Source: Patescibacteria group bacterium
GTDB lineage: Bacteria; Patescibacteriota; JAQUNI01
Assembly: GCA_028717685.1 (NCBI GenBank)
Contig: JAQUNI010000001.1
Location: 633,329 to 697,328 of the forward strand
Direction: 5' to 3'
DNA length: 64,000 nt
The position numbers and the translations under genes are program-made. The notes beneath the pieces were generated by a model, which did not search any database, was not told the DNA's origin, and saw nothing but the letters and a program-made list of their open reading frames with translations. Numbering within the stretch: position 1 is the first letter of the stretch; each line of letters begins with the position of its first letter. This document shows, piece after piece, positions 34,170-43,025 of this stretch.

Positions 34170-34263
34170 TAAGATGTTTGGAAAGTATCGTTTTTCCGAG
34201 AGCGCAAATATAGTAACTCCCAAAATACTAGGACCTAAATCCGAAGAACTATTAAGAATAAAT

Positions 34264-34304
34264 TTGGGGTCAAGTCTTAAAGCTTGACCTTTTTTTATTT
34301 TAAA
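34264..34304 (+). repeat. Repeat family G hairpin
   Basis: TTGGGGTCAAGTCTTAAAGCTTGACCTTTTTTTATTTTAAA. Confidence 0.8.
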
Positions 34305-34373
34305 TTATAAAATCGCCAGAAGGGCGATTTTTTGGTAAAATAAAAAAGAGTTCATTAAAATAAAAACAAATTT

Positions 34374-35646: not shown

Positions 35647-35685
35647 TTGGGGTCAGGTCTAAAAAATTTAACCTCTTTTTTATTT
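35647..35685 (+). repeat. Repeat family G hairpin
   Basis: TTGGGGTCAGGTCTAAAAAATTTAACCTCTTTTTTATTT. Confidence 0.8.
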
Positions 35686-35741
35686 GTTGGCTCCACAGCC
35701 TTCGCTAACGCTTAAGACTATGGAGCCAACAACTGACATCT

Positions 35742-35995: not shown

Positions 35996-36292
35996 ATGAA
36001 GATATTAAAGTTTTTAGCAATAGCAGTGACATTTTTGTTGGGTATTGTTTTTGCGATTTTTACAGTATTATTAGGGATAGGATATTTATCCATGGTTTTT
36101 ACTGGTACCCACTTATCTGCCGAAGAGCAGACAGAAATCTTGCTTATGGGTCTGCCAATATCTGCTTCCTGTTTGGGATTGGGGTATGTCTCTTATGGAT
36201 TTTTCTCTTTTTTCCACTGGTTGCGGAAACGTTGGTTTCAGGTGAACAGAGAGGAGAAATTTGGGGTCAGGACATTTGGGGTCAGGTTTTGA
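35996..36292 (+). CDS. Small 2-TM hypothetical protein; its C-terminus is encoded by the family G repeat
   Basis: AAGGAG RBS before ATG 35996; ends FGVRTFGVRF. Confidence 0.65.
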   Translation: MKILKFLAIAVTFLLGIVFAIFTVLLGIGYLSMVFTGTHLSAEEQTEILLMGLPISASCLGLGYVSYGFFSFFHWLRKRWFQVNREEKFGVRTFGVRF

Positions 36293-36314
36293 AACTTGAC
36301 CTCTTTTTTTATTT
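36259..36314 (+). repeat. Repeat family G hairpin with a duplicated 5' arm
   Basis: ATTTGGGGTCAGGAC ATTTGGGGTCAGGTTTTGAAACTTGACCTCTTTTTTTATTT. Confidence 0.82.
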
Positions 36315-36498
36315 CTAAATTTCATTATCCCTTCGGTAAACTTAGGGTAAGCACCTTCGGCTTCACTCAAGGCAAGCATCATTTATCCAAGCGGGAAAAG
36401 TTTTACAAACCGAGCTATCTGTTCGGAAGTTTTTTTATAAAGCGAATTGCCAAAAAGGCGAATTTTTTGTAAAATAAAATAAAATAATACAAATATTT

Positions 36499-38940
36499 AT
36501 GTTATCAGGAGGATTAAGCGAAAAACAAGTTTTAGAATTAAGAGAGAAATTTGGCGAGAATTTGATTCTATCTAAAGAGAAAACCACTTGGCTTTCAATT
36601 TTATTATTTCAACTTAAGAGCCCCTTAATTTATATTTTAATTGTTATCGGGTTTATTTCCCTATTTTTTAAAGAATACTTTGATCTGATTTTAATTTGGT
36701 CCGTGATCGTCCTTAATACCCTGATGGGTTTTTTCCAAGAATACCATGTTAAAAAAACCCTCGCTGCTTTTAGAAAACTTTTAAAGCCTAAGGCGCTAGT
36801 TGTCCGAGAAGGCAAAAGGAAGGAGATTGAAGCAAGGGAATTAGTGCCGGGCGATTTGGTTGTTTTAAATTCTGGAGATAAAGTCCCGGCTGACGGAAAA
36901 ATCATCGAAGGAGTAAATTTGTTAATTAATGAAGCAATTTTAACCGGCGAAGAGGAGGCGGTGGCGAAAACAACAGAGAAAGAAAACAGTCTTGCTTTTA
37001 TGGGCACGATGGTGATTTCCGGCAGGGGAATCATAAAAGTTTTAAATATCGGGAAAGAAACAGCAATTGGAAAGATTGAGCAAAAATTAGCCGACATAAA
37101 AGAAAGGAAAACGCCGATTCAGCTGAAACTTGACGAATTTTCAAAAAGTTTAGGGAAGATTATTTTAATCGTTTGCGTAATTGTTTTTTTAGTAGGATTG
37201 TTCTATCGGGTAGACGCTTGGGAAATGTTTAAGTTCGCCGTTATCCTGGCGGTGGCGGCAATACCCGAGGGTTTGCCGATAGCGATAACCGTGATTTTAG
37301 CCCTCGGGGTGAGGAGAGTATTAAAAAGAAACGGGCTGGTTAAAAGGTTAATTTCAGTTGAGACCCTAGGTTCAACCTCGGTTATTTGCACCGATAAAAC
37401 CGGAACCCTGACAGAAGGAAAAATGAAAGTCGTAAAAACAGATTTTTTAGATAAGGGAAAAACATTGCTTGCTTTAACTTTGAATAATGAGCAAAGGAGC
37501 GGTTTGGAGGCTGCTATTTGGGATTATGTAAAAAAGGAAAAGAGATTTAACCCCCAAGATATTTTTGATAAAGCGGAAAGAATTTATGAGGAGCCATTTG
37601 ATAGCGAAAAGAAATATTCAATGACTATAAATAAAGTTGAAAATAAGGAAATTGCTTTTTTGAAAGGGGCTCCAGAAATTATTCTTTCATTTTGCCAGAT
37701 TTTTGATGAAGAGAAAAATAAAATTTTGAGAGAAATTGAAAAATGGGCGGACGAGGGATTGAGAATTTTAGGGGTAGCTTTTAAAGAGAAAGGAAATTTA
37801 AAGGAGAAGAAAGGATTTTCTTGGCTTGGCTTAGTCGGTATTATTGATCCGATCAGGAAAGATGTGAGAGAGGCAATTTTGAGCGCTCAAAAAGCCGGGA
37901 TAGAAATTAAAATAGTGACCGGCGACTATCGAAAAACAGCCGAAAGATTAGCAGCCAATCTCGGATTTAAACTCGCGCCAAAAAATATTTTAGAAGGTCA
38001 GATGCTGGAAGCTATTTCAGAGGAAGAACTTGAAAAGAAAATAGACGACATTGTTGTATTCAGCAGGGTTGCCCCCCATCAAAAACAAAAAATAGTAAAA
38101 GTGCTTCAGGAAAAAGGAGAGATAGTGGCGATGACAGGAGATGGCGTAAATGATGTCCTTGCCTTAAAAAAAGCCGATATTGGCGTCGCGGTAGGAAGCG
38201 CTTCCGAGGTAGCCAAGGAAGCGGGAGATTTAATTTTACTGGACAATAATTTTACGACGATTGTCGCGGCAGTGGAGGAAGGCAGATTAATTTTTTCAAA
38301 CATTAAAAAAGTTGTAAGTTATGTTCTCTCCAATTCTTTTGTGGAGATTTTTTTGATTTTCGGCTCCATAATTTTAGATTTGCCCTATCCTCTTATAATA
38401 GTTCAAATTTTGTGGCTTCACCTTATTTGCGACGGACCACCCGATATTATATTGGGCTTTGAGCCTAAAGAAAAAGATCTTATGAAAGAAAGACCAGAAA
38501 ATCTTCGGAAAGAAAGCATTCTCTCTAACGCAATGAAATTTTTAATCTTCGGAATCAGTTTTATTATCGGATTCCTCTGTTTATTTCTCTTCTGGTATAT
38601 TCTGGAAAAAACAGGGGATCTAATTTTTGCTCGCACCATTATTTTTACAACAGTCGCCATAGTTGATTTAATTTATATTTTTTCTTTTAAGAATTTGAAA
38701 AAACCCATTTTCAAAACCGAGAATTTTTTCAAAAATAAGCTTTTGTTTTTAGGCGTGCTTTATGGACTTTTACTTACTTTCGCCGCCATTTATTTGCCTG
38801 TTTTGAATCGAATTTTAGGCACAGAGCCTCTCAAACCAATTCATTGGTTATTAGTTTTAAGCGTTGCTTTAATTGCTACCCTTTGGGCTGAATTAGTTAA
38901 AATTGTATATAATCGAAAACATAGGCTTAATAATAATTAG
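36499..38940 (+). CDS. Cation-transporting P-type ATPase (type IIA-like)
   Basis: TGE, IPEGL, DKTGT, KGAPE, TGD, GDGVND motifs. Confidence 0.95.
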   Translation: MLSGGLSEKQVLELREKFGENLILSKEKTTWLSILLFQLKSPLIYILIVIGFISLFFKEYFDLILIWSVIVLNTLMGFFQEYHVKKTLAAFRKLLKPKALVVREGKRKEIEARELVPGDLVVLNSGDKVPADGKIIEGVNLLINEAILTGEEEAVAKTTEKENSLAFMGTMVISGRGIIKVLNIGKETAIGKIEQKLADIKERKTPIQLKLDEFSKSLGKIILIVCVIVFLVGLFYRVDAWEMFKFAVILAVAAIPEGLPIAITVILALGVRRVLKRNGLVKRLISVETLGSTSVICTDKTGTLTEGKMKVVKTDFLDKGKTLLALTLNNEQRSGLEAAIWDYVKKEKRFNPQDIFDKAERIYEEPFDSEKKYSMTINKVENKEIAFLKGAPEIILSFCQIFDEEKNKILREIEKWADEGLRILGVAFKEKGNLKEKKGFSWLGLVGIIDPIRKDVREAILSAQKAGIEIKIVTGDYRKTAERLAANLGFKLAPKNILEGQMLEAISEEELEKKIDDIVVFSRVAPHQKQKIVKVLQEKGEIVAMTGDGVNDVLALKKADIGVAVGSASEVAKEAGDLILLDNNFTTIVAAVEEGRLIFSNIKKVVSYVLSNSFVEIFLIFGSIILDLPYPLIIVQILWLHLICDGPPDIILGFEPKEKDLMKERPENLRKESILSNAMKFLIFGISFIIGFLCLFLFWYILEKTGDLIFARTIIFTTVAIVDLIYIFSFKNLKKPIFKTENFFKNKLLFLGVLYGLLLTFAAIYLPVLNRILGTEPLKPIHWLLVLSVALIATLWAELVKIVYNRKHRLNNN

Positions 38941-39022
38941 CAGATATAATGATAAAATTCCATTTTACCTCTTTTTTATTTGAATCCTCACAGGAGTTAT
39001 CTTTCAATTACTATAAAGAGGA

Positions 39023-39058
39023 GGGGTCGAGTCTAAAAAGCTTGACCCTTTTTTATTT
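39023..39058 (+). repeat. Repeat family G hairpin (partial extra copy at 38965-38981)
   Basis: GGGGTCGAGTCTAAAAAGCTTGACCCTTTTTTATTT. Confidence 0.78.
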
Positions 39059-39154
39059 CTATATTCTAGCAAAGCAGATGATTATTTTTTAATACCCACA
39101 TTAGATAGCAAGAAATTTTGTGATATAATGAATGTGATTTTTAAAAACAAAACT

Positions 39155-39757
39155 ATGAAAAAAATTGCCATTATCGTGGGTGCGATGTTGCTTTTTTCGG
39201 GTTGTAGTATTGGTGCGAATAAAGCATCCGAATCTGATACCAGCCAAGTCCAAAAAGGGAAAGAGGGAGAAGTTTGCAGCGCCAGCAAGATTTGCGAGGA
39301 GGGACTGAAATGTATCAGTAATATCTGTTCTTCGGGGGTCGTTGGTTCGGCATGCGCGACTTATAAAGATTGTCAAACGGGGTTGTACTGCATTAAAGCG
39401 GTCTGCTCTAATCCGCCTTCTTATACCCAATACTTTAACAAAATTCAGATCGGTAAAATGAAACCAGAACCGCCAGGGCCAAAAAATATTCCCGTTCCTG
39501 CCACCGAATTTACCTCGGCTGACACTCTGGAAATTGATGTGCAGACCAAAACCGGCGTGACAGGCACTTTGCATTATGAACTCATCAATGCCACGACAGG
39601 TCAAACCGAAATGTCTAGCGCGGACAACAAACAGAAAGTAGCGCCAGGATCGTGGGGGACAGGGTTCATGATCCCTGCAGGATTGTCGGGGCAATACGAT
39701 TTGAATATCTATTTTAATGACGAGCTTATTTACACGACTACTATTACTGTGACCTAA
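39155..39757 (+). CDS. Putative lipoprotein with Cys-rich repeats and an Ig-like domain
   Basis: LLFSGC lipobox; two C..C..GL.C....C units. Confidence 0.75.
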   Translation: MKKIAIIVGAMLLFSGCSIGANKASESDTSQVQKGKEGEVCSASKICEEGLKCISNICSSGVVGSACATYKDCQTGLYCIKAVCSNPPSYTQYFNKIQIGKMKPEPPGPKNIPVPATEFTSADTLEIDVQTKTGVTGTLHYELINATTGQTEMSSADNKQKVAPGSWGTGFMIPAGLSGQYDLNIYFNDELIYTTTITVT

Positions 39758-39760
39758 TAG

Positions 39761-39797
39761 TAAACCCCGTTAGAGAGTCGTTCTCTAATGGGGTAAA
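39761..39797. repeat. CCCCGTTAGA..TCTAAYGGGG palindromic element
   Basis: Copies also at 53929-53967 and 63534-63578. Confidence 0.8.
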
Positions 39798-40008
39798 TAA
39801 CGAAATCGCAGAACCATAAGGAGGTGTGCATTTTGACTACACTTTTTTTGAGCTGACTAATTAAACAGGTTCTAACCCTTCGGCTTAGTTCGATAGGTAT
39901 GACGGTGAGCCCGTCGAACCGATAACTATAAATTGCTTGAGGGCAGGCGTTCGTCCCGAGAGGACTTGAGCCCCGAGGGGCTATTGTCTACGATGCGGAG
40001 TTTATATT

Positions 40009-40038
40009 AAAAAAATGGCTTAAATAAAGCCATTTTTT
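40009..40038 (+). repeat. Repeat family T hairpin
   Basis: AAAAAAATGGCTTAAATAAAGCCATTTTTT, preceded by GCGGAG. Confidence 0.8.
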
Positions 40039-40217
40039 GTTTCCAGTATTGACTTATCCGACAAAATAGGAAATAATGATGTTTATAGGATTTATTTTTT
40101 TTATTGAGATGGTTCTTTTTTACTAAAATTAATCTAGTATATTAAGCGGCAGAAGCGACCTTTGAGATGTATATAATATTTTTTGAAGTAATCATTATTT
40201 TTTGTGGAGGTGAAGAT

Positions 40218-41165
40218 ATGCAAGGAGGGCAGCATTGGAATATTCTGAAAGAGATCCCTGTTTCCATTAATAATATTATTGGTGACCCCTTCGTTCCAGC
40301 GCAGATAGAAGACACTTTTTATAAGTTATCTAGCTTACGGGCATCCGGTCATAAAGGGCCGATTTCCATCATCACTAAATCCAAATTTGATACCGCGATG
40401 TTGGAGAGGCTCTCCCTTTATGGCGATATGACCAACTTGATCATTTTCTACACATTAACAGGAATGAAAGAAGGAGGCATCCCGTTTCCGGAAAGAATTC
40501 AGACTTATAAAGAACTGGCACAGCTTAAATCTCACACTGTCTTGCTCTATCGCCCGATTATTCAGGGCCATAATGATTCCCCGGAAATAATTAAGACTAT
40601 GGTGGACCTTTGCAAAGTGACAGGAACCCGTCTTGTTTATACCGGATTTTATAACCAGAAGAAAGAGAAGTTTCTTAATCCTGTAACAGAAAATAAAATT
40701 GTTCAATATGCTAGGGAAATGGGCGTTGGGAATTTTCCCAAATCAGCCTGCGCAACAAGCGATATTTTAGGTGATGTTTGTTTCGCGCATGTGAACGAGG
40801 GGTCCATGAACTTAAAGTTGATCAGGGAACTTTACGATATAGAGGACCAAGATGGGAAGATTATCCTTGCTTATGGTACGCCCGGTGATCGTAATTTCAT
40901 TCGTTTCATCACCCATGCCAATGTTACTATCAACAAGAGTGAGCCTTACCATTTTTTATCTCTTCAGACAGAGATCCCTTTATTATGTTCATCAAGCTGG
41001 TTTAGCTGGAGCCAGATTGTGCCTTGCAGTATAGGATGCTGGTACTGCTCAACAGAATATGTGTTTCCGGAATGCAAGGAGCCGAAACAAATTGGATGCA
41101 ACCCCGTAGAAATCCCGCATCTTGTTTCAGATAACATCGTTATGCCCGTTGGCGCATTATCTTAA
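40218..41165 (+). CDS. Radical SAM-like protein (SPL/Rv2578c-like core) with a C-terminal CxxxCxxC
   Basis: GGAGG RBS; GDPF, IITK, RPIIQGHNDS core motifs; CSIGCWYC at 41025-41048. Confidence 0.7.
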   Translation: MQGGQHWNILKEIPVSINNIIGDPFVPAQIEDTFYKLSSLRASGHKGPISIITKSKFDTAMLERLSLYGDMTNLIIFYTLTGMKEGGIPFPERIQTYKELAQLKSHTVLLYRPIIQGHNDSPEIIKTMVDLCKVTGTRLVYTGFYNQKKEKFLNPVTENKIVQYAREMGVGNFPKSACATSDILGDVCFAHVNEGSMNLKLIRELYDIEDQDGKIILAYGTPGDRNFIRFITHANVTINKSEPYHFLSLQTEIPLLCSSSWFSWSQIVPCSIGCWYCSTEYVFPECKEPKQIGCNPVEIPHLVSDNIVMPVGALS

Positions 41166-41244
41166 ATTATGCTTAAAACGGGCTTTTTATTTTTAACTTG
41201 AGAAAAGCGTCAAAGCAGGGTAAAATTAAAAAAGAGATAAAATT

Positions 41245-41961
41245 ATGTGTAAAAAACCAATTGCCATTGCCACAATTTCTTTAAATAGGACCCCCGAAGA
41301 AGGAGAAACAGTTTTAGAGACAGTGAAAATTCTGAATAGTCTTGGTATCCCCATAGTAATAGCAGATGGCGGTTCCCCAATAAAACAAAAGAAAATAATG
41401 AAATCATTTTCCAATGTTACTTTTTTGGAAGCAGAAGGACTGACCAATGAAATAAAGACCACTTTTTGGCAGGGCGCGGCAATGGCTGATTCTCTTTTCT
41501 ATCTTCATTTGGATAAATTGGATTTTGTCAGGAAATATGTTCCGAAGTTGATTCAACACTACCTCGCTTGCAAAAAGAAAAAGATGCTTGTTGTTGCGCG
41601 GACTAAAAAGTCCTTCCAAACTTATCCTCCCTACCAAAGGAAAGTGGAGGAATATTTGAATTATGTTCTCGGAGACTATTGCGGTTTAAGGTCGGATTAT
41701 TATTATGGTCCGAAGATTTTTTCCTCAATGCTTGTCCCATATCTTAAAGCGCTCAAAGGGGATGTGGCTTTTGGCATTGAAGCCTATTTTTATGTTTTAA
41801 ATCACAGACTCTCTCTGCCTATGGAATTCTATCCCGTGGAGATTACCGCCCCTGCCGAGGTGCTTGCAGACGAGCTCGAATTCAAACAATATCGTTTGAA
41901 AGGTCTTTCGCAACAGGTAGAAGGTTTTTTACAGGGGCAGAAAGTGGAAGTCGCAGGGTAA
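41245..41961 (+). CDS. Hypothetical protein, GT-A/GT2-like fold
   Basis: PIVIADGGS, YLHLDK, ART.KSFQTYP..Q. Confidence 0.6.
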   Translation: MCKKPIAIATISLNRTPEEGETVLETVKILNSLGIPIVIADGGSPIKQKKIMKSFSNVTFLEAEGLTNEIKTTFWQGAAMADSLFYLHLDKLDFVRKYVPKLIQHYLACKKKKMLVVARTKKSFQTYPPYQRKVEEYLNYVLGDYCGLRSDYYYGPKIFSSMLVPYLKALKGDVAFGIEAYFYVLNHRLSLPMEFYPVEITAPAEVLADELEFKQYRLKGLSQQVEGFLQGQKVEVAG

Positions 41962-42146
41962 TTCCCATCTTAAAAAGATGGCTCATTTAACAGCCTATAT
42001 TAAAAATGGTTCCTATTGCGTTATTTTTCAATGGCAAAATTTCCAAGGGCATTGTCCAGAAATACTGTAACTTTTAGCGATTTTATATTATAATATTAAT
42101 GAAGGGTAATAAAATAAATTAAATAAAAAATAAAGAGGAGGTAAGA

Positions 42147-42614
42147 ATGAAAAAGTATATTTACATCTTGGTTATTCTAGTTGTGATCGTGGTGGGTTTA
42201 GGAGCTTATTTTTTGTGGAAGCGGTCAAATGCGCCGCAAGCCGCGCCTTCTGTTGGTCCGCAGAGCGTTTCGCAGGTGCTGTCGGAGGTGGAAAAGATCT
42301 CCGGGTTGCCCAGCGCAAAGCCAGTAAAAGTGAAACAGGATTTTGGCAGCACAGAGAATTTGCTGGACGCTCAAGGCTTTACCTTTACAGCAAAGTTGGG
42401 TGCGCCGGAAATTCAGCAAAAAGTTGACTCTACAGATGAGTGGCTCAAAAATCAGGGATTTACGGCACAAGAATTCAAGCAACCCGAATCAGACAGTGTG
42501 GGTAATCGGTTTATAAAATACAAAAAAGGCTCCACGGAGTGCGTTTTGGAAAAAACGGACATTGAAAGCCAAGACACAAGCGAAGTCTCTTTTGGTTGTC
42601 GTGAATTAAAGTAG
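42147..42614 (+). CDS. Hypothetical membrane-anchored protein
   Basis: GGAGG RBS, N-terminal TM. Confidence 0.75.
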   Translation: MKKYIYILVILVVIVVGLGAYFLWKRSNAPQAAPSVGPQSVSQVLSEVEKISGLPSAKPVKVKQDFGSTENLLDAQGFTFTAKLGAPEIQQKVDSTDEWLKNQGFTAQEFKQPESDSVGNRFIKYKKGSTECVLEKTDIESQDTSEVSFGCRELK

Positions 42615-43025
42615 AGGGAAGGCGAAGCCGCATAAAAAACAGACACGCGAGGCAACTCTAGAGAGGTGAAACTTGAGAGATTTCTGTTTAAAAAAATCAA
42701 AACAAAAAAATATAAGGATGGAATATGGTCATTATTCTATATTTTGCCTAGGCTAGTCTTGGGTATATTTTTTGTTTTTAGCTGATAAAGAAAAAGGGGA
42801 ATAGTTTTGCGCGCGTCAAAATATCAGGGTGATAGTATGAGCGCACTAAATTACACATAAAATTTTGCCCTTTTGGAAAAATATGCTAAAGTAGTTTGAT
42901 GTTTTCGGGAAGGAGGGAAACATCAAAAAGTTTTGTTTTTTCGTTCTTTCATAAATAAGAGCCGCGCGCGGCGGAATATTGGGATAGGCTCTTTTTTGTT
43001 TATTAGTTAAGGGAGGAATTGTGGT

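Follow-up and report, generated by a model that had tools for sequence, protein, structure and literature searches.

A circularly permuted radical SAM-type protein in a Patescibacteria genome and its possible role in nucleotide modification

We analyzed a window of 64,000 nucleotides from the 1.1-Mb genome of a Patescibacteria group bacterium (contig JAQUNI010000001.1, positions 633,329 to 697,328) and found that it encodes a protein, P0001, whose radical SAM core is, with high confidence, naturally circularly permuted. In our preferred reading, to which we assign a probability of about 0.5, P0001 is a permuted radical SAM-type protein predicted to adopt the usual partial barrel of six strands; with a [4Fe-4S] cluster and SAM it likely modifies a nucleotide, cytidine nucleotides being the most likely substrates. 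The features of the locus are collected in Table 1.

P0001 opens directly with the core motifs that the original prediction had likened to those of spore photoproduct lyase (SPL). The start region contains VSINNIIGDPF, SIITK, YTLTG and RPIIQGHNDS, with GDPF at residues 22-25, SIITK at 50-54 and RPIIQGHNDS at 112-121. The sole CxxxCxxC sequence, C270-S-I-G-C274-W-Y-C277 (residues 270-277), lies 46 residues from the C-terminus, where about 45 had been predicted, and has the aromatic Y276 before the last cysteine. This arrangement (C270-x3-C274-W-Y276-C277) agrees with the CxxxCx(aromatic)C pattern of the radical SAM superfamily; a motif of the CxxxCxxC-aromatic form arose in 16 of 20,000 shuffled P0001 sequences. 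PMC1282579 describes the cysteine motif as a superfamily hallmark located near the N-terminus, before the glycine motif, and mentions permutation for methyltransferases; in P0001 the motif is far from the N-terminus and its order is inverted relative to the homologs. A literature search that reached few subscription papers and no supplements found no paper describing permuted radical SAM cores.

The unusual layout is not explained by a damaged gene. A lost or frameshifted N-terminus was ruled out, as the original prediction had held, because the last in-frame stop upstream is at 40143, leaving room for at most 24 extra codons, and no Cys motif occurs in any of the three forward frames of 39100-40260. 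The upstream signals proposed at the same time fared differently: a GGAGGTG ribosome-binding-like site was located, while the promoter was discarded as evidence, since promoter-like sites such as the one at 40049-40077 are at chance level here (7 found versus 8.2 expected). An assembly artefact was likewise ruled out by a 90%-identical 315-residue copy in another assembly and by eight more full-length homologs (53-70% identity) of the same layout.

Table 1. Features of the P0001 locus (window coordinates).
Feature	Coordinates	Strand	Remarks
GGAGGTG ribosome-binding-like site	40206..40212	+	5 nt before ATG; read from sequence
Gene for circularly permuted radical SAM-type protein P0001	40218..41165	+	315 aa, stop-free translation
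Residues 11-186, barrel strands 2-6 (predicted)	40248..40775	+	profile positions 66-263 of non-permuted relatives
Residues 187-257, small alpha/beta domain with invariant GD224, then linker	40776..40988	+	hhalign and model secondary structure
Residues 258-302, moved segment (SSW..W strand, cysteine loop, IGCNP)	40989..41123	+	N-terminal in non-permuted relatives; profile positions 13-57, E 5e-6
C270-x3-C274-x-Y276-C277, predicted [4Fe-4S]/SAM-binding motif	41025..41048	+	conservation, 39 aligned members
Strain-variable slot: lipoprotein-like gene and most of radical SAM gene	39069..41139	.	same-genus genome G001 has ~4.1 kb other genes here
Unannotated 238-aa GT-A-fold protein	41245-41961		downstream of P0001 gene; 12 homologs, no Pfam match

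Ten homologs with 50-90% identity were retrieved by a first, word-indexed search, and all nine full-length ones share the P0001 layout; a full scan yielded 134 representatives. We sorted 87 of 143 proteins by motif position into four groups, leaving out fragments, most fusions and near-copies; the names permA, permB, canon2 and canon3 were coined in the present analysis. The motif is C-terminal in permA (39 proteins, including P0001) and in permB (16 proteins), which has a C-terminal CxxCxYC plus extra cysteines. It is N-terminal in the non-permuted groups canon2 (9 proteins, CxxCxYC) and canon3 (23 proteins, CxxxCxYC). At least 39 divergent proteins have the permuted layout of the P0001 clade, and permA loci come from Actinomycetota, Bacillota, Bacteroidota, Chlamydiae, Patescibacteria, a gammaproteobacterium and DPANN archaea. 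None of 24 viral pattern matches encodes a permA protein, a phage collection contained no match to P0001 or to one permB member, and a search with an alignment of close homologs returned nothing in genome or metagenome contigs. Fusions join the permuted protein to a second radical SAM domain of normal order (L050:5677-8055, L057:6170-8425, L236:6955-9306), which is C-terminal in two DPANN archaea and N-terminal in a gut contig; in a Saprospiraceae genome the permuted gene is split by a transposase gene (L084:7535-8584).

Invariant in all 39 permA proteins are G22, D23, P113, N119, D224, C274, Y276, C277 and G293. C270 is kept in 32 of them, giving CxxxCxYC, and the other seven (P0012, P0013, P0017, P0018, P0024, P0025, P0030) carry the shortened CxxCxYC variant, a form also seen in 16/16 permB and 9/9 canon2 proteins. 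C178 (32/39), C188 (33/39) and H191 (32/39) are retained to a similar degree and may form a second metal site.

The permutation emerges from the comparison of P0001 with its non-permuted homologs, which match both the core and the moved segment with local identities of 24-41%. In the canon3 profile, positions 66-263 are matched by residues 11-148 and 147-186, and positions 13-57 by residues 258-302 (E 5e-6 for P0001 as a single sequence); the order is inverted, and there is almost no gap between the end of the segment (position 57) and the protein start (position 66). Such an inverted C-terminal match was obtained for 29 of the 39 permA proteins with canon3, for 14 with canon2 and for 36 with either, as well as for all 16 permB proteins with canon2. 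At the group level, hhalign aligned permA with canon2 at E 2.6e-45 for the core and E 4e-6 for the moved segment, and with canon3 at E 1e-32 and E 2e-4, respectively. The original prediction of a natural circular permutation is thus borne out by the inverted matches, and the predicted fold agrees with it.

By sequence and in the predicted model, residues 11-186, which carry the GDP, TK, YTLTG..E, RPII.G.ND and G143 motifs, make up what is the C-terminal five-sixths of the core in a normal radical SAM enzyme. The permuted and non-permuted groups are colinear in hhalign up to about residue 256-268, the alpha/beta domain within residues 187-257 being the C-terminal domain of the non-permuted relatives, and the linker before residue 258 would join the old C-terminus to the old N-terminus. 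The canon2 sequences run in the order W..W...C..C.YC...IG..P...L..IPVSINN..GDP; in P0001, IGCNP precedes the end of the chain and LKEIPVSINN follows its start. As judged by sequence, the cut thus lies between IGxxP and L..IPVSINN, with an uncertainty of about ten residues.

It could be argued that P0001 is a relic radical SAM barrel devoid of the N-terminal motif and that its C-terminal cysteines form an unrelated zinc or auxiliary-cluster site, given that C-terminal auxiliary clusters are common among radical SAM enzymes. However, homology between the C-terminal segment and the N-terminal one of the non-permuted relatives persists even with its cysteines masked. In a profile-profile comparison with the canon2 N-terminus, the moved segment scored E 7e-10, and E 2.5e-7 after masking of all cysteines, versus E 0.0018 for the overlapping next window and at least 0.015 for ten others in the cysteine-masked controls; against canon3, the masked segment was the best of ten windows but weak (E 0.012). 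The segment moreover opens with a strand and joins the protein start nearly gaplessly on the profile. We therefore regard the relic as very improbable and retain the permuted core.

The predicted structure was the check proposed earlier for a partial TIM barrel, and the AlphaFold2 model of P0001 (44 sequences; pLDDT 93.8, pTM 0.91) matches radical SAM barrels. Strands 15-17, 49-53, 74-79, 107-114 and 138-145 alternate with helices and, together with a further strand at 262-266 just before the motif cysteines, compose a partial (beta/alpha)6 TIM barrel in the model. In a wide fold search with VIA, radical SAM enzymes occupied 15 of the 17 top rows (best Z 11.1, rmsd 2.8, 152 aligned residues), the two others being a DUF512 protein and a designed barrel. 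The top Foldseek match was a PFL-activating-enzyme domain (E 6e-4, TM 0.73 by target length), and a viral structure library gave generic radical SAM matches only. Residues 6-176 of the model align to radical SAM barrels. With VIA, which is a sequential aligner, the residues from about 6 onwards align from chain residue 61 of PFL-AE, 127 of SPL, 159 of lysine aminomutase and 114 of viperin, starts that, given the cysteine positions of these enzymes, would fall after the cluster loop in all four. The pLDDT of 90-97 across residues 261-300 and the high pTM imply that this segment packs on the core in the model, where the Cys loop would be placed over the SAM site.

P0001 matches no family in Pfam, NCBIfam or PADLOC, and no solved relative was found by sequence in the PDB. 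The Pfam profile PF04055 (gathering score 29.5 bits) gave no match to P0001 and matched 4 of 10 close members at E of 0.15 or higher; other members scored at most 21.8 bits at profile positions of about 49-165, the part after the motif. ThiC, Dph2 and PhnJ are radical SAM-like proteins with non-canonical or C-terminal cysteine motifs, and their ligands are not at the barrel N-terminus. To our knowledge, they are not permutations of the canonical core, their motifs and some of their folds being different.

The same layout is found in DUF1848 (PF08902), an uncharacterised family that did not figure in the original prediction and that we take to have C-terminal radical SAM-like cysteines. As in permA, the barrel core comes first and CxxxCxYC stands near the C-terminus; nine members from 12 loci can be aligned colinearly with permA along 250 columns, and the TK, YT/FT, RP/DP and cysteine motifs coincide. 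In the ESM Atlas, DUF1848 makes up 68% of a listed cluster (score 0.92). However, the similarity to permA is weak (hhalign E 0.0027, probability 11%), and permA is far closer to the non-permuted enzymes (E 1e-32 to 1e-45). PF08902 (cut-off 30.5 bits) matched neither P0001, nor 10 close homologs, nor any protein in the window's genome, and DUF1848 forms its own long branch with a support of 100. Membership of P0001 in this family was thus rejected on score and tree. The permuted layout is not unique to permA, being present in DUF1848 and permB as well. According to bioRxiv 10.1101/2021.12.02.470933, UG25 reverse transcriptases have DUF1848 as a partner whose function is unknown.

In a quick tree built on 119 rows of the shared core, with the moved segment excluded, permA, permB, canon3 and DUF1848 are each recovered as one group (SH-aLRT 98-100); canon2 does not form one group. 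A quick tree of 57 of the 119 rows sets permA apart from permB, and the best tree needs three changes for both permuted clades, but the AU test does not reject a common clade of permA and permB (p 0.26, and p 0.24 once DUF1848 is included). Therefore, one to three permutation events have to be considered.

Gene neighborhoods of the relatives point to the substrate. Degenerate-pattern scans gave at least 120 genome stretches and 42 metagenome stretches; with four fetched regions, at least 48 loci encode permA proteins, at least 33 remain after merging at 85% identity, and at least 28 of these are 4 kb or longer. Among the 28 listed non-redundant loci of this length, NMP-kinase-like genes lie near permA in 16 (0 of 70 controls) and PEP-utilizer genes in 11 (1 of 70 controls). 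Either of them is present in 19 of the 28 loci, compared with 1 of the 70 controls, a figure that overstates independence and contrast because the loci are related; nine loci have neither. The controls were 70 chance-match loci of similar length, and the partner queries were taken from the same loci, with the own locus left out. The kinase/PEP link is present on both main permA branches. This difference from the controls makes a nucleotide substrate likely, and the gene neighbors suggest that it is probably cytidine, although thymidylate- and DNMK-type kinases also occur near permA, so that cytidine is not exclusive.

Pfam neighbors in selected permA loci include cytidylate-, thymidylate- and DNMK-type kinases, enzyme-I-like PEP-utilizers, methyltransferases, nucleotidyltransferases, histidine phosphatases, DUF402, NUDIX, pyrophosphatase and glycosyltransferases. 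The L258 member sits between dCTP deaminase-like and cytidylate kinase genes. Of the listed loci with context, the two closest to P0001 both have no kinase/PEP module: the L259 member (49% identical) starts 1 nt after a CTP synthase stop, a single case on a 2.6-kb contig, and the L083 member (51% identical) has a DNA methylase downstream and, upstream, a gene with no Pfam match that presumably has HAD-like motifs. PTS enzyme-I-like proteins beside cytidylate-kinase-like genes were observed in L016, L036, L078, L224, L232 and L240; they have the mobile His domain and the PEP-binding barrel, apparently without the HPr-binding part, and those of L016 and L036 also have a PRTase-like motif.

In Actinobacteria, a recurring cluster (L010, L011, L058, L029, L040, L012, L181) combines the permuted radical SAM gene with varying subsets of genes for NMP kinase, NTP_transf_5 nucleotidyltransferase, GNAT, methyltransferase, histidine phosphatase, DUF402 and luciferase-like oxygenase; in L010, a gene for a lantibiotic dehydratase and a short ORF that we take to be FxLD-like are present as well. 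Modification of a peptide or carrier-bound intermediate in natural-product clusters, with the kinases serving other steps, would be consistent with actinobacterial loci that contain NRPS modules, lantibiotic dehydratase or prolyl oligopeptidase, with PqqD and a second radical SAM gene in L233, and with one member that has an N-terminal carrier domain. However, such partners differ among loci while the kinase recurs, and P0001 has no SPASM or RRE domain recognisable with Pfam or NCBIfam; we consider a peptide substrate improbable and favor the nucleotide.

The non-permuted relatives adjoin genes for thymidylate kinase, thymidylate synthase, NDK or exonuclease, or are MazG fusions. A MazG-like N-terminal domain was observed in two genomes of the phylum (L216:6656-8122, a Pfam match, and L217:6687-8141). 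Canon3 proteins occur with exonuclease and kinase in plasmid defence-like islands and in Streptomyces. Cassettes of a non-permuted relative and a DEDDh exonuclease (L002:7773-10068, L004:7767-10068, L184:5507-8704, L186:6838-8633), usually with a P-loop kinase and sometimes with an aldo-keto reductase, are a candidate undescribed defence cassette; PADLOC gave no match to the radical SAM protein of L002. The permB genes share operons with genes for a class-V PLP enzyme and another radical SAM protein, both in genomes of the Patescibacteria phylum and on viral contigs. This three-gene operon (L189, L190, L213, L214, L221, L246, L252; fusions P0078 and P0111; metagenome contigs too) encodes a cysteine desulfurase-like class-V PLP enzyme, a permB protein with CxxCxYC and a CPSCCTTC-type cluster, and the partner radical SAM protein, and is possibly a sulfur-insertion system.

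The P0001 gene was found in one of 61 related genomes, namely its own. A broader profile matched in 8 of 401 genomes of the phylum with all subgroups counted, and the six other match regions fetched among these eight genomes encode permB or canon3 proteins. The gene has no kinase or PEP-utilizer neighbor, and six of seven partner queries, among them the kinase, PEP-utilizer, deaminase and HAD-like ones, found nothing in the window's genome; the only query matched, CTP synthase, lies about 83 kb from the P0001 gene. The same-genus genome G001 matches the window at 36371-39068 and 41140-42773 with 92-93% identity, and between these flanks (39069-41139) only a short repeat matches it. The P0001 gene is a lone accessory cassette in a strain-variable slot. 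Short palindromic intergenic repeats of several families (window 39758-39800, 40010-40042, 35675-35732, 34260-34310, 36274-36321) recur genome-wide and flank the variable genes.

A 94%-identical copy of the protein encoded downstream of P0001 is named from Candidatus Doudnabacteria. The fold of this putative glycosyltransferase is closest to GpgS and Dol-P-Man synthase (Z 16.1, rmsd 3.4, 213 aligned residues), a neighbor that would suit tailoring of nucleotide sugars or glycans in concert with glycosyltransferases. GT1-/GT2-type genes in L012, L040, L084, L181, L232 and L233 fit such a role, as do some fused second radical SAM domains with DesII as the best or second-best NCBIfam match. Against it, G001 keeps the glycosyltransferase without the radical SAM gene, by which obligate pairing of the two was rejected, and no neighbor in 23 other loci clusters with this glycosyltransferase in BLASTP. 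Sugar tailoring thus appears rather unlikely, and the nucleotide itself remains our preferred substrate.

The resemblance to SPL noted in the original prediction holds only loosely. SPL repairs a thymine dimer in spore DNA. Its partial barrel (PDB 4fhc, chain 127-340) aligns with residues 6-175 of the model at Z 7.3 and rmsd 3.2, whereas the identity is 10%, the motif order of SPL is normal, and there is no sign of an SPL role in P0001. The NCBIfam models for SPL, Rv2578c and PA0069 do not match P0001; its non-permuted relatives match NF033668 (PA0069), NF038135 (Rv2578c) and TIGR04470 weakly, with at most 48 bits compared with cut-offs of 360-430. The unnamed SPL/COG1533-like relatives, such as WP_174096429.1 from an Agrobacterium vitis plasmid, are homologous in core and moved segment and have similar nucleotide-handling neighbors, but differ from P0001 in their N-terminal motif and in extra cysteines after the barrel; they are uncharacterised too.

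These likenesses raise the possibility that P0001 acts on DNA or RNA, by lesion repair as in SPL or by base modification in the polymer. The matches of the non-permuted relatives to PA0069 and Rv2578c (best E about 1e-12), the automatic name 'DNA repair photolyase' of one of these relatives, the SPL fold match, the methylase genes of L083 and L084, and the presence of permB on viral contigs are in line with it. However, the profile scores fall far below the cut-offs, SPL ranks only 27th among the fold matches, and the patchy distribution and the kinase/PEP neighbors better suit a small-molecule substrate, so that action on a nucleic acid is unlikely, though less so than the other alternatives weighed here.

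For the preferred nucleotide substrate, viperin and AbmM are possible functional analogues, with fold matches of Z 7.7 and 6.8. Viperin turns CTP into ddhCTP, the substrate of AbmM is CDP, and cytidylate kinase genes are associated with both enzymes; the choice of cytidine for P0001 would follow by analogy with them. They differ from P0001 in belonging to a different radical SAM subgroup with the normal motif order, and no specific sequence similarity was found. The viperin model NF038283 (cut-off 180 bits) did not match P0001 and gave weak matches only within the fused second radical SAM domains that P0029, P0042 and P0065 carry. By the sequence and fold tests run, P0001 is not a DUF1848 protein, an SPL or a viperin.

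P0001 is predicted, with fair assurance, to be an active radical SAM enzyme. Sequence comparison shows that the C-terminus now carries what were the first strand and cysteine loop of an ancestral enzyme with an N-terminal motif, and the moved strand is predicted to complete the barrel so that C270, C274 and C277 lie beside the GDP motif as usual. By established radical SAM chemistry, reductive cleavage of SAM would yield a 5'-deoxyadenosyl radical that abstracts hydrogen from the substrate. The gene neighbors of the relatives suggest an NMP, NDP or NTP as this substrate and a modified nucleotide as the product, for use in specialised metabolism or in conflict with viruses; in the window's genome, the lone cassette would act on the host's own nucleotide pool. 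The permutation as such lends no support to the earlier suggestion of possibly new chemistry: the catalytic motifs are retained, permuted and non-permuted members share similar nucleotide-handling neighborhoods, and the permutation probably leaves the chemistry unchanged. A bolder and unlikely proposal combines several of these points: an unnamed radical SAM branch would have swapped its cluster strand and loop repeatedly and independently (in permA, the desulfurase-linked clade and DUF1848) and would tolerate CxxCxYC, and permA would produce a hitherto undescribed modified cytidine nucleotide that serves ultra-small bacteria as a mobile, viperin-like single-gene antiviral.

Radical SAM enzymes are, as a rule, recognised by their N-terminal cysteine motif. 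The permuted proteins fall below the Pfam and NCBIfam cut-offs and are named hypothetical if at all, so that a whole family has been missed by annotation; the surprise is lessened by DUF1848, which has the same layout. Closely related permuted and non-permuted proteins offer a natural pair for questions of barrel assembly and motif position. Since the family occurs in clusters of culturable Streptomyces and Paenibacillus together with kinases and tailoring enzymes, its substrate and product are directly testable, and the product may be a new modified nucleotide.
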